From a virus (lineage: Duplodnaviria > Heunggongvirae > Uroviricota > Caudoviricetes): 12,646 nucleotides of DNA. Where the stretch lies: IMG/VR virus record IMGVR_UViG_2703718674_000003. One strand, given 5' to 3'. The number at the start of each line of letters is the position of its first letter. Within the stretch, counting starts at the first letter, position 1. Made by a program: the position numbers and the translations under genes. Below, one piece after another: positions 131-12,292 of the stretch. The notes under the pieces are model-generated. The model was given only the letters and a program-made list of their open reading frames with translations, did no database searches and was not told the origin of the DNA.

Positions 131-2772
131 CGCCCGCTCCCCGATAACATACCGCCATCACGCAACTGCAGCCGGAGCTCATCCTGCGCCCCCTTGCGGG
201 CCATGTCATACACCGCCTTCATCAGCTGCGGCCCCGCCTGTCCGTTGGTGCCGTCGTTCTGAATCACCACGTGATTGTTCTGATTAAAATTAATACCTTC
301 CGCCCGCCGCATCTGCGCCGGACTTCCGGCACCACCCACATAACCACCTTCCGCATAGCCGCGCATCAGACGGTAAAGATTCCCCACACCTATCCGGCTG
401 GTTGCCTCTTTCGTGAAAACAAACTCCCCGCGGTGAACTATCCCCGCAGGCTCATATTTGCCGCCCGTCCCCGTAAATCCTCCGGTCGCGAAATGGAAGT
501 TCGCCGCCGCAGCCTGAATGGCCGTCCCCGAGGAAGCAGATGCACCACCACCGAAAGCACCGCCAATGGCGCTGCCGATACGCCCGACAATGCCCACCAT
601 GGCCTGTTTAAGCAGGATTTCTGTCATCATGGACAGCACCGAACGGGTGAATCCCCGCCAGTCTGCCTCTGCACCGGTCAGCATCGCCGCCATATTCTGT
701 GCAATACCGTCAAAGGTCTGCGTGGCAGCACTTTTAACCTGCGAAAAACTGTCCGTCGCACTTTCCGCCCACTCGCCCCAGCCGGACTTCAGCCCGGCCA
801 TCCAGCTTCCACGAAGCTGCTCCTCCGCAGACCAGGTGTTCTTCAGTGCCGATGTGGCCTTCGCCAGCGCAGCCGGATTATCACCGTACACGTCCCGAAG
901 ACGCTGCGCTTCAGACTCCCGCTGCGCCTGACGGTCAGTGAGACCGCGGGCTTTTGCGCTGATGGCGGCCTGCTTCGCGCTCTGCTGCTCTTCAAACCGC
1001 ACCGCCTGCTGTGCCAGCTCATTCAGGCGTTTCTGGTATTCAACCTTGTCGCCCAGCTCAGCCAGCTGGCGTTTGTACTCCAGCGTCTCGTCTTTATGCG
1101 CCAGCAGGGATTTTTCCTGCTCAGATAACTGTCGTTTCGTGGCAGCCTCTTTCAGGACCGCATACTGACTTTCCGCCTTCCATAAATCACGGCGCTGCCG
1201 GCTGATTTTCTCATTCGCACCGCTGTGTTTTTCCAGCGTCCTGAGCTCAGCTTCAAGGGCAAGCAGAGCCTCTCTTGCCTGCTCCTCTTCCCTCTCCCCG
1301 GCAGAGCGCGTTTTCGGTGATGTATGCTTTTTACCTGTCAGCTCTTCAGCCAGACGGCTGACGGCTTCCTGCTGCCCCGGACCTTTGCTGACGCCTGTTG
1401 CACGCGAACGGTTGATGTACCCCATTTCCCCCTGGCGTATACGCGCATCCCGTTCCGCAATGGATTTTCTCAGCGCCAGTTCATCACGTTTTGTTTTCTC
1501 AATAAATACGCGGTTCTCTTCTGCCAGTTCACCAAACAACGCACCAACGCCGGGCACATTCTTTGTCGTTTCCCAGGCTGACTGAATAAATTCAGCCAGC
1601 GCCAGATCCCCCTGCACAAGCAGCAGCTTCACCTGTTCAACGGTTCCGGCCACCACGTCAGTGATCAGACTGAGTGCCCCCAGTGTATGATCACCTATCC
1701 ATGCCCATGCGTCAGAAGTCCAGGTTTTAACATCGTCCCAGATTTTTTCCACCGGCGTGGCCGCTTTATCAAGTTGCTCCAGACGTGCATTCATGACATC
1801 CGCAAACAGGGACATCGCCTCCGTCACCGCAGCCTGTTTACCTTTCGTGCGCTCAAGCTCATCAATATGGCGTAACTGGGAAACGCTCAGGAAGTTATAC
1901 TGCTGATTCAGGGAGGCCAGCGCCTTCACCGGATCTGCTGCAATCCCTTCAAAGGCTTTTTCCACCTTCCCGGCATCGTCCCCCACCGTCTGCAGCCATC
2001 TCTGAGAGGTTTCCCCCATGATCCGTAGCTGCCCGGCGGTATATTTCCCGCTTTCTGCCAGACGGGCCAGATTTTCTGCCGCCTGTCTGATACCACCACC
2101 GGCTTCATCGCTGATCACCCCGGCCATTTTCCACAATTCTGCCGTTGTGGTGGCAGCCGCCCCTCCGGTCAGGATCAGTGAACGCAATAAGGCCCGGTCA
2201 GCCTGCTCTGCCTGCCAGGCGGCGGCAGCAAGCGCGGCCAGTACGGCAACCCCGCCACCTGCCGCCACACGGGCCACCGACATAAATCGTCCCAGCTCAC
2301 CGGCATTCCGGGCATTTTCAGCCAGTGCATTTGCCGTATCTGACAGCGACTCCTCTGATGATTCAGAGGCATCCCTGATCCCGAGAAGTTCCTCCTTCAG
2401 CAGGGTAAGCAGGCTGAGCGGTCCACCGAATGAATCGCTGATCTGCCCCCCCTGCTGCAGCATGATAAGGAAGGGATTCTGACCACCGGCAAGCTGAGTG
2501 ACAATATCCGTGAACTGTGCGGGCAGTGTGCGCATGGCAGCCTTATACTGTCCGACTGATATCCCGGCTTTTTGTGCCGCCAGCGCCTGTCGGCTCAGAC
2601 TCTGCTCAGCAGCATCAGCCTGTTTTCTGAAAGACTGACTGACTTTCCCGGACATCAAATCAGCAAGCGCACTGGTTTCACCCAGCTCTTTTTTTACCCG
2701 CGCTGCCTCTTCAGAAAAACGGGCAGAATCCAGTGTCAGCACGGCTGTCAGATCGGCAAAATTACCTGCCAT
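127..2772 (-). CDS. H: Tail tape measure protein (lambda gpH-like), about 881 aa
   Basis: The protein matches lambda gpH along its length by eye, with long identical blocks such as SLSRQALAAQKAGISVGQYKAAMR, LTLQAELRTLEKHAGANEKIS-like, SVLSMMTEILLKQAMVGIVG and AGIVHRGEFVFTKEATSRIGVGNLYRLMRGYA. The ORF track starts it at a GTG (2781), but the ATG at 2772 has an AGGAGG Shine-Dalgarno 8 nt upstream and aligns with the lambda H start (MAGNFADL vs MAEPVGDL). Stop TGA at 129..127. Confidence 0.93.
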   Translation of the reverse strand: MAGNFADLTAVLTLDSARFSEEAARVKKELGETSALADLMSGKVSQSFRKQADAAEQSLSRQALAAQKAGISVGQYKAAMRTLPAQFTDIVTQLAGGQNPFLIMLQQGGQISDSFGGPLSLLTLLKEELLGIRDASESSEESLSDTANALAENARNAGELGRFMSVARVAAGGGVAVLAALAAAAWQAEQADRALLRSLILTGGAAATTTAELWKMAGVISDEAGGGIRQAAENLARLAESGKYTAGQLRIMGETSQRWLQTVGDDAGKVEKAFEGIAADPVKALASLNQQYNFLSVSQLRHIDELERTKGKQAAVTEAMSLFADVMNARLEQLDKAATPVEKIWDDVKTWTSDAWAWIGDHTLGALSLITDVVAGTVEQVKLLLVQGDLALAEFIQSAWETTKNVPGVGALFGELAEENRVFIEKTKRDELALRKSIAERDARIRQGEMGYINRSRATGVSKGPGQQEAVSRLAEELTGKKHTSPKTRSAGEREEEQAREALLALEAELRTLEKHSGANEKISRQRRDLWKAESQYAVLKEAATKRQLSEQEKSLLAHKDETLEYKRQLAELGDKVEYQKRLNELAQQAVRFEEQQSAKQAAISAKARGLTDRQAQRESEAQRLRDVYGDNPAALAKATSALKNTWSAEEQLRGSWMAGLKSGWGEWAESATDSFSQVKSAATQTFDGIAQNMAAMLTGAEADWRGFTRSVLSMMTEILLKQAMVGIVGRIGSAIGGAFGGGASASSGTAIQAAAANFHFATGGFTGTGGKYEPAGIVHRGEFVFTKEATSRIGVGNLYRLMRGYAEGGYVGGAGSPAQMRRAEGINFNQNNHVVIQNDGTNGQAGPQLMKAVYDMARKGAQDELRLQLRDGGMLSGSGR

Positions 2773-2815
2773 CGTGGTCACCTCCTGAAATGTCCTCTGA
2801 TACCATCAATAACTG

Positions 2816-3573
2816 TCACAACCTCCTTCCCTCCTCCCCGAAACGGACTCCACCGGCGAGGCCCGCCGCCTTCTGCATCAGTACATCATTTTCGTCCGGC
2901 GCCTCCGCCTGTCCTTCCTCTGCCTCCGGAGCGAACAGGCTGAAATCCGCCGGATGCATATCCGGATCGCAAAAAAACAGGCTGAGTACGGCGTACATCA
3001 GCCCGGAAAAATGCATATCCAGCTGGGTATCCTGAAAATAATGCGTGCAGTAAAAACGTCGCCAGTCGGCATATTCGGTGGATGTCATCCCGGCAAGCAT
3101 GGCGCGCCAGTCGGCTCTCCCCATCTCACGCGCCAGTTTCAGGACAAAGTTCAGCTCGCCTTCGAATGCTTTTTTGATGTTACCGGCTCAGTCGCTTCTG
3201 TTTTCCCGGTTGGTTCAGGATCGGCATCGTGCCGGTTATCCAGCATACCTGAAAGATAAAGCACCCGGTTCGTTGCCTGATTCAGTGCATCAGCAGGCCA
3301 TCCCAGCATCACTTCACGGCGGATCTGCTGCATCTCTGTCTCCGGAGAGGCCAGAGTGCCTTTGAGGGAATGGGAATGCCATAGCGACATCGCCACAAGC
3401 AGGGATGCCGTTTCCAGATATCGCTGGTTAATGCGCACGACATCATGCTTCGTTGTCTTCTGTTGTTCTGCGTCTGAAACAAACTTCATATAATCAAACC
3501 GCTGCAGCGCAGACAATTCGGAAAGCGTGACGGACACACCGTTATATTCAAATTGTTCTGTTTTCAGAAACAT
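2816..3573 (-). CDS. T: Tail assembly chaperone G-T fusion made by programmed -1 ribosomal frameshift near the end of G (about 250 aa)
   Basis: A slippery heptamer A AAA AAG (mRNA sense) lies at 3175..3169, 5 codons before the G stop. The -1 frame is open from that point to the TGA at 2818..2816 and encodes AFEGELNLVLKLAREMGRADWRAMLAGM..., corresponding to the 102-aa ORF 2816..3124. Codon phase fits a -1 shift (G frame codon tops are 0 mod 3, T frame 1 mod 3). The position between V/G and H matches the conserved G/G-T arrangement of lambda-like tails. Confidence 0.8.
3151..3573 (-). CDS. G: Tail assembly chaperone G (lambda gpG-like), 140 aa
   Basis: The protein begins MFLKTEQFEYNGVSVTLSELSALQR, near-identical to the lambda gpG N-terminus. 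ATG at 3573 is preceded by GGAGG at 7-nt spacing. Stop TGA at 3153..3151. Confidence 0.9.
   Translation of the reverse strand: MFLKTEQFEYNGVSVTLSELSALQRFDYMKFVSDAEQQKTTKHDVVRINQRYLETASLLVAMSLWHSHSLKGTLASPETEMQQIRREVMLGWPADALNQATNRVLYLSGMLDNRHDADPEPTGKTEATEPVTSKKHSKAS
3169..3175 (-). promoter_or_regulatory. Slippery heptamer A AAA AAG for the G to G-T -1 frameshift
   Basis: Plus strand 3169..3175 is cttttttt-type (c followed by six t), i.e. AAAAAAG on the minus strand in the X XXY YYZ phase of the G frame (UCA AAA AAG). This is a canonical -1 frameshift heptamer, as in E. coli dnaX. Confidence 0.7.
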
Positions 3574-3603
3574 GTATTACCTCCGTTTACCCTGCAGCGC
3601 CCG

Positions 3604-3685
3604 NNNNNNNNNNNNNNNNNNNNNNNNNNNNNNNNNNNNNNNNNNNNNNNNNNNNNNNNNNNNNNNNNNNNNNNNNNNNNNNNNN
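3604..3685. other. Assembly gap (82 N)
   Basis: Uninterrupted run of n characters. It is not a multiple of 3, so the reading frame across it is meaningless. Confidence 0.99.
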
Positions 3686-4283
3686 CGGAAACCGCTCTGA
3701 ACGTCTTGTCGGTTGCACTTTCCGGCTCAAAAGAAACCGTCAGGGTGGTTGTTTTCCCTTTTGCCACCGTACCGGATGTCGGTGTCACCTTAATTGCAGT
3801 GGCCGGCGTAATTTCGCTGCGTTCTTCCGCCACGGAAGGTTTGCCCACGTTAGTGACTTTCACCGTGCGGGTGATCACTTCTTTCGCCGTCACGGCCTTA
3901 CCGATACTGCTGACCCAGCCACGGAACACATCCACCGTGCCATTTGGGAAACGGATTTTATAGGCCCGCACATCCCCGCTTTCAAACCAGCCTATAAGCC
4001 CTTTCTGACCTTCTTCTCCCGGTTTCCAGGCCAGCGTAAAACTGGTATCTCCTGCAGACTTCTGCCCCTGCCCGGTCGCGGTCCAGTCCGCGTCTTCATC
4101 ATCCAGGTAGTTATCATCGTAGGGTTCTGCCGTCATCTCGCCCGGCGTCAGATCCTTCACCTTAGCCAGTCGCTGCCAGTCATCGTCTGACAACGGGTTT
4201 GCATAAGCATCACCCTTGCCGTTGTAAACCCACAGAGTGGTACCGGCACCTTTTACCGGCTCAAGGGGATTTGGTGTTGCCAT
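3686..4283 (-). CDS. V: Major tail protein V (lambda gpV-like); 3' end lost in the assembly gap
   Basis: The N-terminal 199 aa ([86 protein letters not shown]...FRAVS) are near-identical to lambda gpV. ATG at 4283 is preceded by a GAGGA Shine-Dalgarno. The true stop lies within or just after the N run, in the roughly 30 nt before the G start. The ORF-track tail (GRCRVNGGNTCF, ending 3564) depends on an arbitrary frame across the gap and is not trusted. Confidence 0.85.
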
Positions 4284-4701: not shown

Positions 4702-5331
4702 TCATTTTCTTTTCAGCACCAGGCGTAACTGATGCGTCATGGCTTTCATCATCTGCGCCGGTAATTTTTCCCGGTACATCCGGTCCCGTTCACGTTCAAA
4801 GGTTTCTGCCAGCGGTCCGGCAGTCGTAATCTTCACCACTTCGATCGGCAGACGGTGGCGTTTCGGCCTCCCTTTGCTGTCCGCGCCGGTGGATGATGAT
4901 GCCCACGGCATACGCTGCATCACATGCCAGCGTCCGTTAGCCAGCCGGGTGATAAAGGCGTCCGGGATCCGTCTTTTCCCCACAATCAGCACACTGCCGC
5001 CCCCTTTCAGGGCCGCACGCTGTCCTTTCTTTCTCCGTTTTCTGCGGGAAAGTCGAACGCGGGCCTCCCCCAGTTTGATGGCGGGCAGGTTGCCGGTATT
5101 GATGTAAACCTTTGCGTAAACCTTATCCGGTCGTGCCGGACTTAACCGGATGCGGGCACGGATAAGACGACGGGGAACGGCCAGCTCCCTGGCAACTGAA
5201 GAGGCCGTTTTCGCAATAATGGCCCCCGCCACTCGGTTCAGTGTCGTGGCAGAGGCCCGGGGAACGGCACGGCGATCAATTGCATCCAGATTTTTCATGG
5301 CCTGCGCCAGACCTTTTATTGCCATACTCAT
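4702..5331 (-). CDS. Z: Tail completion protein Z (lambda gpZ-like), 209 aa
   Basis: The N-terminus MSMAIKGL and the block LSRRKRRKKGQR..LKGGGSVL.VG.RRIP.AFI..L.NGRWHVMQR match lambda gpZ as recalled. The ATG at 5331 overlaps the upstream gene stop (ATGA at 5328..5331). Confidence 0.9.
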   Translation of the reverse strand: MSMAIKGLAQAMKNLDAIDRRAVPRASATTLNRVAGAIIAKTASSVARELAVPRRLIRARIRLSPARPDKVYAKVYINTGNLPAIKLGEARVRLSRRKRRKKGQRAALKGGGSVLIVGKRRIPDAFITRLANGRWHVMQRMPWASSSTGADSKGRPKRHRLPIEVVKITTAGPLAETFERERDRMYREKLPAQMMKAMTHQLRLVLKRK

Positions 5332-5609
5332 TCCTGTTCGACAAAAATCCGGGGTTTACCGTTGTACGTGTCATAACGGGTCACCGTCAGTGTGCGCCCC
5401 GCAAACACAACAACATCATGACGGGCCGGACGGTACCGGGCTGAAAACACCACCAGTGACAACTGGCTGCCCGAAAGCGCCCCCATCTCCGCGGACTCTT
5501 CCTCCGGCATCACGTCGTACACGACGCCGTTAATCTCCGCCTGTTTGCCCATCACCCGAACGGTCGCCACGTCCATCCGGCAACACATTCGCGTAAACAG
5601 ATCAGACAT
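5328..5609 (-). CDS. Small head-tail joining/attachment-like protein, 93 aa (occupies the lambda FII position; possibly the Gifsy-2-type prophage family)
   Basis: ORF with ATG at 5609 and TGA at 5330..5328, translationally coupled to both neighbours (8-nt overlap upstream, ATGA overlap with Z). Its position between the head genes and Z is where lambda encodes FII. I see no obvious similarity to lambda FII, so the function is assigned by synteny. Confidence 0.6.
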   Translation of the reverse strand: MSDLFTRMCCRMDVATVRVMGKQAEINGVVYDVMPEEESAEMGALSGSQLSLVVFSARYRPARHDVVVFAGRTLTVTRYDTYNGKPRIFVEQE

Positions 5610-5944: not shown

Positions 5945-5993
5945 ACAGCCCCGGTGGGGCTGTTTTTCAGGCATAAAAAAAGCCCTTTCGGGC
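5945..5993 (-). terminator. Tandem hairpins in the capsid-decoration intergenic region; possible partial terminator after the capsid gene
   Basis: Minus strand: GCCC-GAAA-GGGC (5993..5982) followed by U7 (5981..5975), then an 8-bp GC-rich stem (5963..5945) just upstream of the decoration-gene ribosome binding site. Read on the plus strand, the 8-bp stem (acagcccc ggt ggggctgt) is followed by a T5 run and so looks like a plus-strand intrinsic terminator. Confidence 0.35.
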
Positions 5994-6015: not shown

Positions 6016-8040
6016 TCAGGCCACCGACGAACGCACCAGCCCGCGCCAGTCAAGTGGTGCCACTCCGGCATCAATACGGATTTTTGTGGCAATGCCGTCA
6101 GTGGTGAAACCTTCCTGCTGATCAATGTATGGCGTGTCCACACCATCCAGCCAGGCCACTTCAATGGTGTCAGTGCCCTGTGCCGCCGCCAGATACCAGG
6201 TTTTCGGGTCTGCCGCATCAAGACGCGCTTCTGCAATCACCTCAGCAAAGTTCTGGATAGGGTTAATGACACCGGCGTTTGCATCCGCCCCTTTCACACT
6301 GGCCGATTTGATGGTCTGGTTCGCCACCGTCTCCAGTGCCACCGGTACCAGCATAAAGGCCGGACGGATATTCAGGGCACGATCGCCTTCTTTCTGCAGG
6401 CGCATCATCTGACGGGCCGCATCCAGTCCGGAAACGGAGATCCCCCCGGTGGCAATATTTTTGTGATCGGCATGGAACAGCGCCTTACCGTCGGACAGTT
6501 TCGGGTTATCCGTCAGCACCTTGTAGACCAGGTCACCAATCGTTGCCTTCGCCGCACGCCCCATCTTCATCGGCACGTCCACCAGCATATTCAGATCATC
6601 ATTGATAATGGCCTGGCGGGTGATGGAGAAAATCTCCCCGTAAGTGGCCAGTGCAATGGTCTCCTTGCGATCTGAGGTGGTGATGTATTTATACTCCGCC
6701 CCCTCACGAACCTGGCGCAGAGAACCAAAACCGCCCATCCCCACGCGATACGCTGTTTTGAAGTCTGACAGGCGTCCCTTACGGGTCCACTTCTGGAAGG
6801 TTTCTTCTGATTCCTCCCAGCCCTGGATCAGCCCCTTGTTCGACACATCCAGCAGAATATTGCCAAAATCAGAGGTGCTGTGCGTCAGCGCCAGCCCGAC
6901 CATCTGCATGGGGTTATAACTGGCCACCCCAATACCGCGCTCCGTCAGTGACATGCGAGCCCATTCACGCAGGGTCATCCCGTTATAGGCGTTATCCTTC
7001 TCGACATTTTCAAATCCGGCACGGGCCAGCATCGCCTGGCGGATCCCGTCCCCCACAAAATTGCCGTTTCCGGCATAAATATGGGCCGGTGTATTTTTGT
7101 TGGTCGGCGAGGACTCCTTGCCCATTTCATTCAGCAGTCGTTCACGGGCCATTTCCAGCGAACAGTCAGGATCAGCCACGCACTGTGCCTGAAGCGTCTG
7201 ATAGCGACCACCGAACATGGCAAACAGATCGTTAATGCCTGACATGCGGGCTTTCTGTTCTGCCATAACGCGGGCGCGAATGGTCGCCTCATCAGACACT
7301 GCCGGTACCGGTGATGGTTCTGTTACCGCCGGTGCAGGGATTGTCACTGTGGTATCACGCGGGGCACTGTTGCGTGGCGGAGTAATCATGTTTCGGATGG
7401 ATTCCGGCATCTTTTTAAATTCCTCTGTACGTTTTGACTGAATACATGCCATTGCCTCAACAGCGGGTGTCACCTGGTCAGCAAATCCGTGTGCCAGACA
7501 TTCGGCACCGGACATCCAGGTTTCATCCGCCAGCATGGCGGCAATTTCATCGGTGGTTTTTCCGGTTTTCTGCGCATAGGCTGGCAACAGTACCGATTCG
7601 ACTTTATCCAGCAAATCGGCATAACTGCGCATATCCTCAGCATCCCCGCCACTGAATCCCCATGGCTTATGGATCATCATGAAGGCATTTTCCGGCATAA
7701 TGACCGTATCACCGGCCATCGCAATCACAGATGCCATCGAGGCGGCAACGCCATCCACATACACGGTAATGGTCGCCCCCTGATTTTTCAGGGCATTAAA
7801 AATGGCGATGCCTTCAAAGACATCGCCACCCGGTGAATTGATATGGAGATTAATGTGGGTGATATCACCCAGAGCATTCAGTTCGCTGACAAACTGCTTC
7901 GCGGTAACTCCCCAGAAACCAATCTCGTCATAAATATAAATATCCGCGTCACCCGGCACCCCAGCCTGCATCCTGAACCAGGATTTATTCTTCATGCTGG
8001 CTTTCGGTGTCGCGCTGATACTGTCGTTCAGTTCCGGCAC
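6016..8040 (-). CDS. Fused prohead protease (ClpP/S14-like) - scaffold-like linker - major capsid protein (tripartite capsid gene), about 675 aa
   Basis: The N-terminal region (GDADIYIYDEIGFWGV ... INSPGGDVFEGIAIFNAL ... VDGVAASMASVIAMAGD ... MMIHKPWG) has a ClpP-like serine protease signature. The middle is a Pro/Ala/Glu-rich, likely helical segment. I recall the C-terminal roughly 300 aa as major-capsid-like (Mu gpT-like family). The start is uncertain: GTG at 8040 has an AAAGGAGG Shine-Dalgarno 5 nt upstream, while the alternative ATG at 7995 (MKNKSWF) has no good Shine-Dalgarno. The ORF-track start at 8187 overlaps the portal gene by about 200 nt and is unlikely. Stop is TGA followed by TAA at 6018..6013. 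Confidence 0.85.
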   Translation of the reverse strand: MPELNDSISATPKASMKNKSWFRMQAGVPGDADIYIYDEIGFWGVTAKQFVSELNALGDITHINLHINSPGGDVFEGIAIFNALKNQGATITVYVDGVAASMASVIAMAGDTVIMPENAFMMIHKPWGFSGGDAEDMRSYADLLDKVESVLLPAYAQKTGKTTDEIAAMLADETWMSGAECLAHGFADQVTPAVEAMACIQSKRTEEFKKMPESIRNMITPPRNSAPRDTTVTIPAPAVTEPSPVPAVSDEATIRARVMAEQKARMSGINDLFAMFGGRYQTLQAQCVADPDCSLEMARERLLNEMGKESSPTNKNTPAHIYAGNGNFVGDGIRQAMLARAGFENVEKDNAYNGMTLREWARMSLTERGIGVASYNPMQMVGLALTHSTSDFGNILLDVSNKGLIQGWEESEETFQKWTRKGRLSDFKTAYRVGMGGFGSLRQVREGAEYKYITTSDRKETIALATYGEIFSITRQAIINDDLNMLVDVPMKMGRAAKATIGDLVYKVLTDNPKLSDGKALFHADHKNIATGGISVSGLDAARQMMRLQKEGDRALNIRPAFMLVPVALETVANQTIKSASVKGADANAGVINPIQNFAEVIAEARLDAADPKTWYLAAAQGTDTIEVAWLDGVDTPYIDQQEGFTTDGIATKIRIDAGVAPLDWRGLVRSSVA

Positions 8041-9487
8041 TGTTGCCTCCTTTGTCGTTGACGGGATCCGTATCAAAGACCAGCCCCAGTCTGCTGTTTT
8101 CATCAATTTCAGCCTTGCGGCGACGTTTGACCTCATCCGGATTGCGCCCGCCGGCACGCACCCAGTCAGATTCTGTCGCTGCACCACCCCGGATCTGAAT
8201 TCTCCAGGCTTCAGCTTCCTTAACCGGGTCGATCCACGGCATCACCGGACCGGAATACGTCGCGTTATATAGCGTTTTCATCTCCACATCCGCCGGAATT
8301 TTCAGCAGACCTGCCGCAACCACCATATTCAGCCATGTCCGGTACACCGGGCGGGTTACCGCGCCAATAAAACAGTCCTGCAGGATCAGGTAACCATCCG
8401 TGGACTCGACCAGCTCCTGCCGCTGGGCGCTGTAGGTGCCGTTATAGTTACGCGCCGCACTGGAAAAACTCAGACGACTGCCTGCTGCCACTGCACGCAA
8501 CTGGCCGTTGCGGAAAGTTTCAAGGTTGGGATTGGGACGGTCAGATTTGACCATGCCGATATCCTCGCCCTTGCGCAAATCGTCATAAATAATACCCGGG
8601 GTGATATGGACTTCCCGCTCGGTTTCTTTGATCCCCGGATCTTCATAGTCCTGTCCGTCACCTTTACGGATATACAGTCCCAGCGCCGCAGCAATACGCG
8701 CCGCTGTCAGTTCCGCATCCTCATACTCCTTAAGGGCACTGATCCGCATCAGCACCCCCGATAACATGGATGAGCCTCGCGTCTGGTGCAGACGACGAGT
8801 GAACTTCAGGTGGATCATTTTTCCGGCAGCGATTTCTTTCGTATCACTCTGCCGGCCGCTGACCGGATAATTTTTATAAACCAGATATTTTTTCGGTCTT
8901 CCCCACTCATCAAGAAAAACCCCCTGATTCAGTCCGGCGGATTCATCAGTGCGCATGGGAACAAAATCCGGCTCCATCGCCTCAAGCCAGAATGGCACTC
9001 CCGCCGTCCGTTCCAGACCGTTTCCCGCACCACTGACCATCTGCGCAAACACTTCACCATCCCGCAGCCAGGTCCGCAGCAGTAAACGTTCAAGCACAGG
9101 ACGGGTATACTGCCCTGTCACATCCGGACTCACGGACCATTCAGCCCACAAACGGCGGATATCCGCAGCCAGCTCAGCCGCCATTTCCCCGTTTTTTCGT
9201 AATGGCTGAGGCTCCACAATAATTCCCCTGGCACCAATCACCCGCTCTTCCAGCTTGTCAAACACACCAATCACCAGGTCATGATTGATATCCAGAAAAC
9301 GGGCCTGCTCCCGCAGGGAAACCGCACCGTATTTACTGAGCTGATCAGCAGAGCGATTTTCCCGCCGGGCTTTATGTGTCCGGGTCGGTTTCACCGCCTC
9401 ATAGGCCATGATTAACGCCCTTGAACGCAGTCTGGCTGCTTTCCACCTAGGGGAAAACACGCCGATCACATCATCAATAATTGCCAT
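7985..9487 (-). CDS. B: Portal protein (lambda gpB-like), 500 aa
   Basis: Size and position (immediately after W and the terminase, before the protease-capsid gene) fit a lambda-family portal. The ATG at 9487 overlaps the W stop (TAATG). Confidence 0.9.
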   Translation of the reverse strand: MAIIDDVIGVFSPRWKAARLRSRALIMAYEAVKPTRTHKARRENRSADQLSKYGAVSLREQARFLDINHDLVIGVFDKLEERVIGARGIIVEPQPLRKNGEMAAELAADIRRLWAEWSVSPDVTGQYTRPVLERLLLRTWLRDGEVFAQMVSGAGNGLERTAGVPFWLEAMEPDFVPMRTDESAGLNQGVFLDEWGRPKKYLVYKNYPVSGRQSDTKEIAAGKMIHLKFTRRLHQTRGSSMLSGVLMRISALKEYEDAELTAARIAAALGLYIRKGDGQDYEDPGIKETEREVHITPGIIYDDLRKGEDIGMVKSDRPNPNLETFRNGQLRAVAAGSRLSFSSAARNYNGTYSAQRQELVESTDGYLILQDCFIGAVTRPVYRTWLNMVVAAGLLKIPADVEMKTLYNATYSGPVMPWIDPVKEAEAWRIQIRGGAATESDWVRAGGRNPDEVKRRRKAEIDENSRLGLVFDTDPVNDKGGNSAGTERQYQRDTESQHEE

Positions 9488-9723
9488 TAAAACCTCGCCA
9501 GTTTAAATCCCGGTTTTCCCCGCCTGCGGCTCACCATCGCGGCAAGCCTGCGTTCCCACTCCTGACGTCCGGCGCGGATCTGAGAAAGGCTTTCCAGCGT
9601 CAGTTGCTGCCCGTTGAAGGTGACAGACTTTCCCTCCAGTACGGCCATTTCCGCTTCACGGTACCGCTGTATCATTTCTCTGGCTTCTTCTGTGCTCACA
9701 ACCAGCCTCCTGATGTTATCCAT
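9487..9723 (-). CDS. W: Head-tail joining protein (lambda gpW-like), 78 aa
   Basis: The C-terminus ...MVSRRRGKPGF resembles the lambda gpW C-terminus (...QRRRGPAGFYV), and the length is similar. It sits between terminase large subunit and portal as in lambda. The ATG at 9723 overlaps the 3' end of the terminase gene by 28 nt. Confidence 0.8.
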   Translation of the reverse strand: MDNIRRLVVSTEEAREMIQRYREAEMAVLEGKSVTFNGQQLTLESLSQIRAGRQEWERRLAAMVSRRRGKPGFKLARF

Positions 9724-11819
9724 GGATTATCTTCCGCACGCTCCGTCCGCAGTTTTTTCTTCCGGCGACGGCGTTTTTCTGCCCCGGCCGTCAGTTCCGG
9801 GGATACCGTTTCACCAGAACGCTCCTGCGGGAAGACGAGCCACGTTTCCCGCTGTGCCCAGTCCGGTGCGGAGGGCCAGCGGATCTTTTCGTAACCATGC
9901 AGAACGGCAAGCGCATCCGCATAAACCAGCAGGTCAAACGCTTCGTTAGCGCCCCTGCCCGGTTTTCGCCATTTTCCGTCACTGCCGCGCTCTTCATAGG
10001 TCAGCTCATCGTAAAACCACCGCCCCAGCCAGTCGGGAAAGTGGATATAGTTCGGCCCTGGTGTGTCACGCCACAGGGCATTATTTACACGATCCTTAAA
10101 CGCATCCGTCTGAACCAGCCACAGCGCGACATCGCCACTGGCTCTGGCACGGCGGGCACTTCTGCCGGTATTATCCGGGAAGGTTCGGTTAATCAGCCTG
10201 TCACGGCGAAGTCCATCCCCCTTGAACAGAAACACCCTGTTGCCCAGTCCGTCACTCCGGCAACGACGCCAGAAACGATAGGCGTTATCTGTCACCCCGG
10301 CTTCCCCTCCCGTATCCACCGCCATGGCCATCAGACGCATGCGCACATCCGGATCAGAAGCCAGCGGCCATGTTTTATGGAACACATCCGTCAGCAACAA
10401 ATCCCAGTCCTCCGGATATGCCGCCGGATCAACCGGCAGACTTTCACCGTTGGGACTGCAGCGCAGTGAATGCCGGATGTTGTAGCGATCAACAATCCAG
10501 CGTTCCCCCTGCTCTCCGTATCCGGTGATCTGCACAACAAAACGGCGATTTTTACCGCCCTGTACGTCAACCGTTGCCTCAATAAAACGCACACCATCCG
10601 GCACAGATCGCCGGGGAAACGGCTCGGCACGCTGTTCAAGCAGTTCACTTTTACGCTGTTCCGTGGCTGAACGGGGCAGATAGGGTCGTCCGATATCGGT
10701 GTTCACCACCGCTTTCAGGGTCTCTTCACTGCCGGTTCGCTCATACTCTTCTTCTGCCGCCAGCAGTTTAAAAATCAGTTGTTCCCAGGTCTGAAACGCC
10801 GCAGCTGGCCCCTCCATCCAAAATGACGCAATCCGGGAGTTTCGTGGCGTTCCGGTGATACTGCCGTCCGCCGCCGCCCGTTCACCTTCACGAAGCCAGA
10901 TCCCCTGGTTATTCAGTTCGCGTTTCTGCTCAGGGGCAATCAGCCCGCGACAATGCGGACACATCAGACGGGCAGCCTGACCGGCAGCCACAAAATCCGG
11001 GTTATTCCGGTATCCGGTCATGTTATCCATCACCGGCTGAAAATATTCCCCGCAGTGCGGACACGGCCAGTACCACCGGCGGCGGTCTCCCCGGTTATAC
11101 AGTGACAGGATCCCCGTTGTTGGCGGTGCCTCATGTGCGCCACCACAACGCCATTTGGTATCGGTGATATCCCGCCCCGGTGAACTCTCGACCAGGGTCA
11201 TCCCCGAAGACATAAAGGTGGTGGTACGCTTTGAGGCCAGCGTGAAGGCATCCCCTTCCCCGTCCACGTTTTCAGGGAAACGGTCATAATCCGTCAGCGC
11301 CACACGACGGTAATCCGAAGAGGAAAAGACGGTGATCGACGGCCAGCCAATCTTCAGGAAGGAGCCGTCAAGAAACATTTTATCGTGGACGTTGTTGTCA
11401 TTACGGGAAGGACTGAGGCGCTTGCTGACCTCCGGACTGTGGCGAAACGTCCTGGAAAGACGCGTTCTGGAATGCTCACGCGCCTTCGTCTCAGTCATCT
11501 GCACCACCAGCATATCCGCCGGATCACAGATGATGCCGTACACAATCCAGCCATCAATCAGCCCTTCGGTTTTCCCGGTTCGCGCAGGTCCCACAAACAC
11601 CACCGCGTCATATTCACGGGCTGATAATGTATTAATGGGGTCAATCATATAGGGCGTCAGCGATGACTCCCACGGACCGGAAGTATTGGCTCCCCGTGGA
11701 ACCCGCATATAACGCCTGATGGCTTCCGCTACTGGTAACCGGCTGGGTGGGCGAAACAGCGAGGCCACTTCGCGCCAGATATCGGATGCGCGGCTATGGC
11801 TCTCGTTCACCTGATTCAC
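9696..11819 (-). CDS. A: Terminase large subunit (lambda gpA family), 707 aa
   Basis: The N-terminal SLFRP motif is shared with lambda gpA; a Walker A-like VFVGPARTGKTEG is present, and paired CPHCG motifs (CPHCGEYF, CPHCRG) suggest a zinc-binding region. The start is a GTG at 11819 that directly overlaps the small-subunit stop (minus strand reads ATG TGA, with GTG in the other frame); the next in-frame ATG would delete the conserved N-terminus. Confidence 0.92.
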   Translation of the reverse strand: MNQVNESHSRASDIWREVASLFRPPSRLPVAEAIRRYMRVPRGANTSGPWESSLTPYMIDPINTLSAREYDAVVFVGPARTGKTEGLIDGWIVYGIICDPADMLVVQMTETKAREHSRTRLSRTFRHSPEVSKRLSPSRNDNNVHDKMFLDGSFLKIGWPSITVFSSSDYRRVALTDYDRFPENVDGEGDAFTLASKRTTTFMSSGMTLVESSPGRDITDTKWRCGGAHEAPPTTGILSLYNRGDRRRWYWPCPHCGEYFQPVMDNMTGYRNNPDFVAAGQAARLMCPHCRGLIAPEQKRELNNQGIWLREGERAAADGSITGTPRNSRIASFWMEGPAAAFQTWEQLIFKLLAAEEEYERTGSEETLKAVVNTDIGRPYLPRSATEQRKSELLEQRAEPFPRRSVPDGVRFIEATVDVQGGKNRRFVVQITGYGEQGERWIVDRYNIRHSLRCSPNGESLPVDPAAYPEDWDLLLTDVFHKTWPLASDPDVRMRLMAMAVDTGGEAGVTDNAYRFWRRCRSDGLGNRVFLFKGDGLRRDRLINRTFPDNTGRSARRARASGDVALWLVQTDAFKDRVNNALWRDTPGPNYIHFPDWLGRWFYDELTYEERGSDGKWRKPGRGANEAFDLLVYADALAVLHGYEKIRWPSAPDWAQRETWLVFPQERSGETVSPELTAGAEKRRRRKKKLRTERAEDNPWITSGGWL

Positions 11820-12292
11820 ATATCGGCCTCATCACAACAGTCAATGACTGCCTTTTCCAGTGTGTCGCGGATCTCATCAACCACAATCTGTACTTCATTC
11901 AGTTGTGATGCAGTCCACCCCCTGTCCCTCTCCAGCCGGTCAGGCCAGGTTTCCAGTACCTGAACTATCGCTTTCACCACGACAGAAAAGGACCGCCTGA
12001 CATCACTGACTGGCACAAGCTGAACAGTTTCATGCTGAAATTTAAGACGCTCGCGCTCGGACTGATACCATGCCTTACGAGCGTGAGGATCCATATCCTC
12101 ATCTTCGGAAGATGGTGGTTTTTCCAGCAACGAAGTTATCAAATCCGTCAGGAGATACAGTTTTTTCTTTTCATTACTGCCTGGTGCAAGAGGAACATCC
12201 GCCATTCTGGCGGCAACAGTCTGCCGGTGCAGACCTGAAAGGGCTGCCAGTTGATTAATATTTAACTTCATATTTTTCAGCTCGCCGTCCAT
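11816..12292 (-). CDS. Nu1: Terminase small subunit (lambda Nu1-like, N-terminal DNA-binding helix-turn-helix), 158 aa
   Basis: The N-terminus MKLNINQLAALSGLHRQTVAARM resembles the Nu1 helix-turn-helix (VNKKQLADIFGASIRTIQNW). The gene lies immediately upstream of, and is coupled to, the large subunit. ATG at 12292 is preceded by GGAGGG at 6-nt spacing; an alternative ATG at 12271 aligns with the Nu1 start but has a weaker Shine-Dalgarno. Confidence 0.82.
   Translation of the reverse strand: MDGELKNMKLNINQLAALSGLHRQTVAARMADVPLAPGSNEKKKLYLLTDLITSLLEKPPSSEDEDMDPHARKAWYQSERERLKFQHETVQLVPVSDVRRSFSVVVKAIVQVLETWPDRLERDRGWTASQLNEVQIVVDEIRDTLEKAVIDCCDEADM

Follow-up and report, generated by a model that had tools for sequence, protein, structure and literature searches.

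Nested protease and scaffold genes, in which one reading frame supplies both an assembly protease and a shorter protein without it, are established in phage lambda and in herpes simplex virus 1 (HSV-1), and a nested pair of this type has recently been shown by ribosome profiling in the archaeal virus HFTV1. Phage Mu also has such a pair (gpI/gpZ), and its capsid protein (gpT) is the product of a separate gene. The Salmonella prophage Gifsy-2 carries a tripartite capsid gene, located in the STM1033 region and reportedly described by Effantin et al. in 2010 (Virology 402:355). According to the papers that cite this work, the tripartite fusion was described experimentally, the capsid protein is released by autoproteolysis and the resulting decorated capsid has T=7 symmetry; in the Gifsy-2 literature, the decoration is attributed to a trimeric cement protein. 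Among siphovirus prophages of Paracoccus, 34% are reported to carry the same fusion. The gene considered here occupies positions 6016 to 8040, minus strand, of a 12,646-nucleotide stretch of DNA (the window) from a virus of the class Caudoviricetes (IMG/VR record IMGVR_UViG_2703718674_000003). It encodes a ClpP-like protease, a linker and scaffold-like segment, and a major capsid protein (MCP) in one open reading frame (ORF), and it probably contains a second, internal translation start at the boundary between the first two of these parts.

Identity of the fusion gene

The ORF is very probably a Gifsy-2-type tripartite capsid gene of a lambdoid prophage of the Escherichia coli O157 type. The model NF045540 ('ClpP-like prohead protease/major capsid protein fusion protein') is matched with 1004 bits, against a cut-off of 475, over model positions 2–651 of 652, and PHROG 133 is matched end to end (1155 bits, positions 2–667 of 668); the protein is a typical member of both families and differs from them in nothing material. 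The Gifsy-2 gene (NC_010393, 22471–24561) is 60% identical and co-linear across the 674 residues, and the decoration protein shares 54% identity with the product of the gene that follows the Gifsy-2 capsid gene, so that the likeness to Gifsy-2 drawn in a preliminary description of this DNA is borne out. The two loci share the three-part order, the overlap with the portal gene, the decoration gene downstream, a pair of hairpins, and a GAGGAG-ATG at the protease/linker boundary. They differ in host and prophage, the window being of the E. coli O157 type; in length, with 696 residues in Gifsy-2 and 674 here, the differences lying in the N-terminus and in two linkers; and in the first start codon, which is ATG in Gifsy-2 and GTG in the window. 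The ORF sequence is 100% identical in E. coli O157:H7 chromosomes, where RefSeq already uses the fusion name, and the fusion is therefore less novel than the preliminary description implied: both the gene and its interpretation are already known and annotated.

Candidate internal start at the protease/linker boundary

The locus had been presented as a single gene, and it is indeed one ORF, but this ORF probably conceals a nested second start. A scan of in-frame start codons for accompanying Shine-Dalgarno (SD) motifs gave one strong internal candidate, ATG 7410 (Met211), with GAGGA ten bases upstream, placed exactly where the protease domain ends and the linker begins. Both ATG and SD are retained in Gifsy-2 and in Pseudomonas phage D14L. 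For a wider comparison, 80 loci (79 of them full-length) were fetched from contigs chosen as one genome per species, mostly from Gammaproteobacteria and at 45–77% identity. A start codon with an SD-like motif was found at the Met211 column in 76 of the 79 full-length loci, or in 41 of 44 when lineages under 80% identity are counted. The second-ranked column reached 23 of 79, and the invariant Met546 had an SD-like motif in 19 of 79, against a background of 9%.

The SD motif is constrained at the level of its nucleotides. The SD motif specifies EE, ED, QE, KD, KE or GD, depending on the locus, and codon 206 is GAG, AAG or CAG in 40 lineages and GAA, AAA or CAA in none, compared with a background of 47% G-ending codons (naive binomial p 1e-13, a value overstated by shared ancestry). 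Synonymous sites near codon 206 are saturated, and the two loci without the Met211 ATG are also without the SD motif. Folding of the mRNA, taken as a mean across 42 lineages, is weakest here: of all the 45-nt segments along the gene, the 15 with the least structure fall at codons 204–218, with a mean of -3.8 kcal/mol compared with a gene mean of -9.7. In an independent set from IMG/VR, every one of the 26 lineages that are at least 46% identical to the window had both ATG and SD, whereas the 13 lineages at 43% identity or less had no ATG, and an SD-like motif was seen in at most one or two of them. An internal ATG common to the entire family was thereby ruled out.

A comparable signal occurs in a second family, NF045541 (prohead protease/major capsid protein fusion, type 2), which differs in having an N-terminal protease that is not ClpP-like. 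The scaffold-like and capsid parts of the two families are homologous from the internal Met onward (residues 223–696 of the protein of Ralstonia phage YO135_4 align with NF045540 model positions 198–652), and the window protein scores 418 bits on the NF045541 model, under its cut-off of 525, with only residues 213–671 matching. In YO135_4, the sequence GAGAGGA stands seven bases before a boundary ATG that opens 'MP', and 25 of 28 full-length relatives (39–98% identity) keep a signal of this kind, one of them shifted by a codon. In the NF045541-type loci (1844–3937 in locus L153, and loci L154–L182), homology to the window protein sets in at the internal Met, give or take a few residues, which means that the internal start coincides with a module-exchange boundary. 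In addition, two stand-alone gene calls among distant cluster representatives (P0211 and P0163; 468 and 443 residues) start with 'MPKSAK' and 'MPPSAK' at the Met211 column; no close relatives of either were found in viral contigs or phage records.

Taken together, these signals resemble a functional translation initiation region, and the gene is probably read from two starts. The predicted internal product spans residues 211–674 (464 residues, 50.5 kDa) and would have the N-terminus (M)PESIRNMITPPR, so that a 464-residue scaffold-capsid protein would be made beside the 674-residue protein. The internal start is absent from RefSeq annotation and was not found in the searchable literature, which did not include the full text of the Gifsy-2 paper; that the start is both real and unreported has about an even chance of being correct.

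A possible, though less probable, explanation is that only the full-length polyprotein is made, that each capsid subunit thus brings its own protease, and that the internal GAGGA-ATG is not used for initiation but kept for the sake of a protein motif ([EKQ][ED][FY]xxMP), of ribosome pausing or of module exchange at this junction. Phe208 and Pro212 (F-x-x-x-P, 7405–7419) are nearly invariant across the family, and the boundary may have a role at the protein level as well, perhaps as a cleavage or hinge site. The members at 43% identity or less that have no internal ATG nevertheless keep both residues, so a single product can suffice. RefSeq, moreover, lists one coding sequence only (for the identical sequence in NZ_CP038372, one product starting at ATG 7995), and the internal product is a prediction from sequence. 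On the other hand, a constraint on the protein fails to explain the 40:0 bias at codon 206 next to saturated synonymous sites, and it leaves without explanation the joint loss of SD and ATG, the minimum of mRNA structure centred on the ATG, and the recurrence of the same signal in a family with an unrelated protease domain. Initiation at both starts is preferred on these grounds.

Upstream translation start

The start of the full-length product had been left ambiguous between GTG 8040, with its strong SD, and ATG 7995. Both candidates exist, giving 674 and 659 residues, respectively, in agreement with the estimate of roughly 660 to 675 codons in the preliminary description, but the ambiguity is now largely resolved in favour of GTG 8040, which is most likely the translation start. 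The motif AAGGAGG (8052–8046) lies five bases upstream of GTG 8040, and close lineages carry the same AAAGGAGG plus GTG or ATG; inspection of the sequence upstream of ATG 7995 revealed no SD motif. The codon at position 1 is ATG, GTG or TTG in 26 of 43 lineages, and 21 of those 26 have an SD. By comparison, the codon at position 16 (ATG 7995 in the window) is a start codon in two of the 43, and just 27 of 121 close homologues have Met at residue 16, where the others have Pro, Val, Ala or Leu. Gene calls of close homologues begin 'MP(E/K)...' at the upstream position, and the annotated ATG of Gifsy-2 ('MPEV') aligns with the GTG of the window ('VPEL').

A start at ATG 7995, yielding the 659-residue protein of RefSeq, was the choice of the annotation program PGAP in NZ_CP038372, and ATG is a better start codon than GTG. 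Set against the SD and the alignments above, this reading is quite unlikely, and the RefSeq start is probably 15 codons short.

Integrity and distribution of the fusion

The fusion ORF is open without interruption from position 8187 to the TGA at 6016–6018 (minus strand, 723 codons). Matching DNA is present in 2070 of 5426 complete E. coli genomes, 82 phage records contain a stretch that matches 80% or more of the query protein, and 8190 cluster representatives match at E≤1e-30. Among 149 distant, newly listed representatives of 50%-identity clusters, 137 are 600–800 residues long. Databases do hold artefactual fusions at this locus, for example 1159-residue portal, protease and capsid ORFs whose junction positions differ, and it could be proposed that the long ORF is itself an artefact in which separate protease and capsid genes appear merged because of a mistake in sequencing or assembly, or because a recent mutation fused them in a prophage undergoing decay. 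This proposal is effectively refuted by the presence of the same uninterrupted ORF, at 99% identity or more, in hundreds of complete genomes, by retention of the fused layout at 36–50% identity in well over 100 independent clusters, by the existence of two curated NCBIfam models, and by the experimental description of Gifsy-2 as reported in citing papers.

About a dozen public ORFs of 1158 or 1159 residues would extend the fusion to the portal protein. A larger portal, protease and capsid fusion was rejected, as the frame switches at differing points of the 56-nt overlap between entries, which points to single-base insertion or deletion errors.

A 99.7% identical gene is present in VT1-Sakai (AP000400.1, 2421–3730), the Shiga toxin 1 (Stx1) prophage of E. 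coli O157 Sakai, where it is split by IS629 and its halves are annotated as 'scaffolding protein' and 'hypothetical protein'. This split copy cannot make capsids on its own.

Domains of the fusion protein

The three-part layout first read from the ORF, namely a ClpP-like protease, a linker and scaffold-like middle, and a capsid domain of the HK97 fold, was recovered by domain searches and structure prediction. In the N-terminal domain, Pfam matches CLP_protease (PF00574) at residues 45–191 (E 1e-36), and the model NF045542 ('head maturation protease, ClpP-related') is passed with 224 bits against a cut-off of 120. The domain aligns to solved ClpP 6hwm (E 3e-18), with Ser101 in AASM and His124 in IHKP. 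Both residues are retained in 136 of 138 aligned sequences drawn from the 50%-identity cluster representatives. The position of the ClpP Asp is occupied by D, A or E about equally among distant relatives. Asp is present there in the window protein itself (Asp172, codon 7525–7527). The full Ser-His-Asp triad of ClpP was ruled out as a family feature by this variability, and catalysis by the phage proteases may rely on a Ser-His dyad or on another acid. The signal-peptide-peptidase (SppA) model gave only 27 bits against a cut-off of 155. Many database names read 'Clp protease ClpP' or 'ATP-dependent Clp protease proteolytic subunit', but it is hardly credible that the prophage carries here, as cargo, a ClpP paralogue of the cellular, ATP-dependent type that has no connection with head maturation, because true ClpP equivalog models stay far under their cut-offs (e.g. 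TIGR00493, 61 vs 309) while the phage-specific NF045542 is passed, because the domain is covalently joined to the capsid protein between the portal and decoration genes, and because 1600 phage records annotate its phage relatives as capsid maturation proteases.

The linker had been called rich in Pro, Ala and Glu. It is Pro-rich and does contain Ala, but it has a single Glu, and the composition of residues 219–250 (P8 T5 A4 V4 S3) is better described as rich in Pro, Thr, Ala and Val. This stretch is gappy and variable in alignments and has a predicted local distance difference test (pLDDT) value below 50 in the model described below. It leads to three predicted helices in residues 251–309 (pLDDT 71–86), then to a variable loop (310–325), and from residue 326 onwards to conserved helices that run into the capsid fold; this conserved helical region thus reaches upstream of the matched capsid domain to about residue 326 (nt 7065). 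The middle segment has no family or PDB match of its own, and a role as scaffold is suggested by its position and by analogy with the delta domain of HK97.

At the C-terminus, Pfam matches Phage_capsid_4 (PF25209) at residues 384–671 (E 1e-55) and, more weakly, the Mu-like gpT family (PF10124, E 7e-10). A full-length profile search against the PDB returned only ClpP chains among the matches listed, and capsid relatives were reached with the C-terminal fragment only, which gave weak but specific matches to solved capsid proteins (9jod_A, E 1e-5; 8rkx; 8rkc), JBD30 'Mu GpT domain' proteins among them. A first AlphaFold2 (AF2) model, of the full-length protein, was discarded; it was built on 34 sequences at 74% identity or more, had a pLDDT of 34, and was moderately confident solely in residues 251–309. 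A second model, of residues 200–674, used 56 sequences down to 39% identity and reached a pLDDT of 69.9, with values of 80–93 across most of the C-terminal 200 residues. Foldseek compared this second model with the PDB and returned 229 matches at E≤1e-3, the top ones all HK97-fold shells at probability 1.00: encapsulins and the capsids of FCWL1, phiXacJX1, PhiTE, JBD30, P4, Adjutor, HRP29 and SaPI1. The template-modelling (TM) scores of these matches are only 0.4–0.6, and the E-loop region of the model is of low confidence. Hidden Markov models and structure prediction thus agree on a capsid fold for the C-terminal region, as was first supposed. The small gene after the fusion, previously taken for a probable decoration gene, likewise matches decoration families (Table 1); for its product, no solved relative is detectable by sequence.

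Proposed assembly pathway

The general course of assembly is taken by analogy from Gifsy-2, HK97 and lambda: a T=7 procapsid would be built on the portal from the capsid domains, and the protease and scaffold-like parts would face inward. Initiation at GTG 8040 would supply the 73-kDa protease-scaffold-capsid protein, and initiation at the internal GAGGA-ATG (7425–7408) the predicted 50.5-kDa scaffold-capsid protein that is free of protease. Following the logic of lambda C/Nu3, a minority of the procapsid subunits would then bring the protease in, each as a covalent extension of a building block. The tethered protease would next remove everything N-terminal of the mature capsid protein, with the maturation cleavage expected somewhere between about residues 309 and 385. 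DNA packaging would expand the shell, and trimers of the decoration protein would stabilize it.

Several considerations weigh against this scheme. The internal start rests on sequence statistics, and the loci compared are phylogenetically related, hence the overstated binomial p-value. The clades at 43% identity or less are without the internal ATG and SD, so that a full-length-only mode is evidently viable, and the near-invariant Pro212 points to a protein-level role at the very position of the proposed start. The middle domain belongs to no recognizable family, and 'scaffold' is a label given by inference. Asp172 is not conserved in the family, and the catalytic mechanism may therefore differ from that of ClpP. 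The fusion gene is known here from sequence and models, and the details of the Gifsy-2 pathway are given as reported in citing papers. Finally, the copy of VT1-Sakai broken by IS629 indicates that not every copy is functional.

Comparison with other head systems

The window resembles lambda in its lambda-family portal and in its W-, FII-, Z-, U-, V-, G/T- and H-like neighbours, and the earlier statement that the tail genes are lambda-like stands, since Z, U, V, G/T and H equivalents are all present. The trimeric cement protein, as given in the Gifsy-2 literature, is a further likeness, and the probable in-frame internal start for a protease-free assembly protein would parallel C/Nu3. Unlike lambda, the window encodes a protease that is ClpP-like (S14) and not of the gpC type, and its capsid protein is Mu-gpT-like and fused, whereas lambda gpE is a separate protein. 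The decoration protein belongs to Phage_cement_2 and follows the capsid gene, whereas that of lambda belongs to the gpD family and precedes it; no match to the gpE or gpD families was found in the window with Pfam. An FI gene is also missing from the window.

HK97 provides a second comparison. In both systems, an HK97-fold capsid domain follows a helical assembly domain at the N-terminus, which a phage protease presumably cuts away, and the predicted internal product (residues 211–674) would have the architecture of gp5, with an assembly domain and a capsid domain. The protease of the window, however, comes from another family and lies in the same ORF, whereas HK97 gp4 is a separate gene, and the window has a gene for a cement protein, by which chainmail cross-linking is predicted to be unnecessary. 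The likeness to Mu lies in the capsid domain, for which matches were obtained both to the Mu-like gpT family and to the JBD30 capsid proteins labelled 'Mu GpT domain'.

Significance

For specialists in lambdoid phages the fusion itself is at textbook level, and its main importance is for correct annotation: the label 'Clp protease ClpP' persists for this capsid gene in many database entries, pipelines for capsid prediction miss it, and one study failed to find an HK97-fold MCP for Gifsy-2. The nested start is possibly an unreported refinement. If it is true, it would answer the puzzle posed by the fusion, namely how a shell of about 415 subunits can be built without 415 proteases packed inside. 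The principle of nesting protease and scaffold, known from lambda, herpesviruses and an archaeal virus, would be extended to a third gene architecture, one that combines the nested-gene strategy of lambda C/Nu3 with the delta-domain strategy of HK97, and the same solution would be found in two fusion families with unrelated proteases. The annotation of thousands of prophage capsid genes in Enterobacteriaceae, Pseudomonas and their relatives would change as a consequence.

Gene order and further observations

The minus strand carries all the long ORFs of the window, which together make up a lambdoid late operon (Table 1). The portal gene ends 56 nt inside the fusion gene, in a different frame (7985–8040), an overlap shared by Gifsy-2. 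Beyond the gene at 5328–5609 lie Z-, U- and V-like genes, a G/T chaperone and a tape measure gene (the H equivalent).

Table 1. Coordinates of genes and sequence features at the head locus of the window.
Feature	Position	Strand	Evidence or remark
Small terminase	11816–12292	-	
Large terminase	9696–11819	-	
gpW-like adaptor	9487–9723	-	
Portal, lambda family	7985–9487	-	PF05136, E 3e-80
Shine-Dalgarno AAGGAGG	8046–8052	-	5 nt before GTG 8040; within the 3' end of the portal gene
Fusion coding sequence: ClpP-like prohead protease, linker/scaffold-like segment, major capsid protein	6016–8040	-	674 residues, 73.1 kDa
ClpP-fold (S14-like) head maturation protease domain, residues 32–197	7450–7947	-	
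Ser101 codon	7738–7740	-	
His124 codon	7669–7671	-	
Candidate internal start: GAGGA 7425–7421, A/T-rich spacer, ATG 7410–7408 (Met211)	7408–7425	-	
Pro/Thr/Ala/Val-rich linker, residues 219–250	7291–7386	-	Predicted disordered
Helical scaffold-like (delta-domain-like) segment, residues 251–309	7114–7290	-	
Major capsid protein domain, HK97 fold	6028–6891	-	Pfam match, residues 384–671
Hairpin 1, GCCC-GAAA-GGGC then T7, terminator-like	5993–5975	-	Sequence and fold
Hairpin 2, CAGCCCC-ACC-GGGGCTG, 7 bp, just before the decoration gene SD	5962–5946	-	Sequence and fold
Decoration (cement) protein gene, 108 residues	5602–5928	-	PF09956 Phage_cement_2, E 7e-19; PHROG 122 'head decoration', E 4e-39
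Gifsy-2/FII-like head-tail protein	5328–5609	-	

The gene at 5328–5609 belongs to PHROG 153 (head-tail joining), matches the Pfam family 'Gifsy-2' (PF13856) and has a weak match of the lambda FII type. RefSeq names it 'DNA breaking-rejoining protein', and PF13856 is described as 'ATP-binding sugar transporter'; given the position and family of the gene, both names look like annotation errors. Further downstream, a canonical slippery heptamer A_AAA_AAG is found at 3169–3175 (minus strand), in the zero frame of the gpG-like chaperone gene (3151–3573) and 16 nt before its stop. From the sequence, this heptamer is the expected site of a -1 frameshift into the gpT-like frame (ORF 2816–3124); in the identical prophage in RefSeq, the T part is marked as an incomplete pseudogene.

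Two intergenic hairpins occupy the gap between the capsid and decoration genes (5946–5993, minus strand). The stem of the first is below the length needed by the terminator scan. The same two-hairpin layout is found in Gifsy-2 (24585–24640) with different stem sequences, which suggests a conserved RNA element that might set the ratio of capsid to decoration protein expression or stabilize a processed mRNA end.

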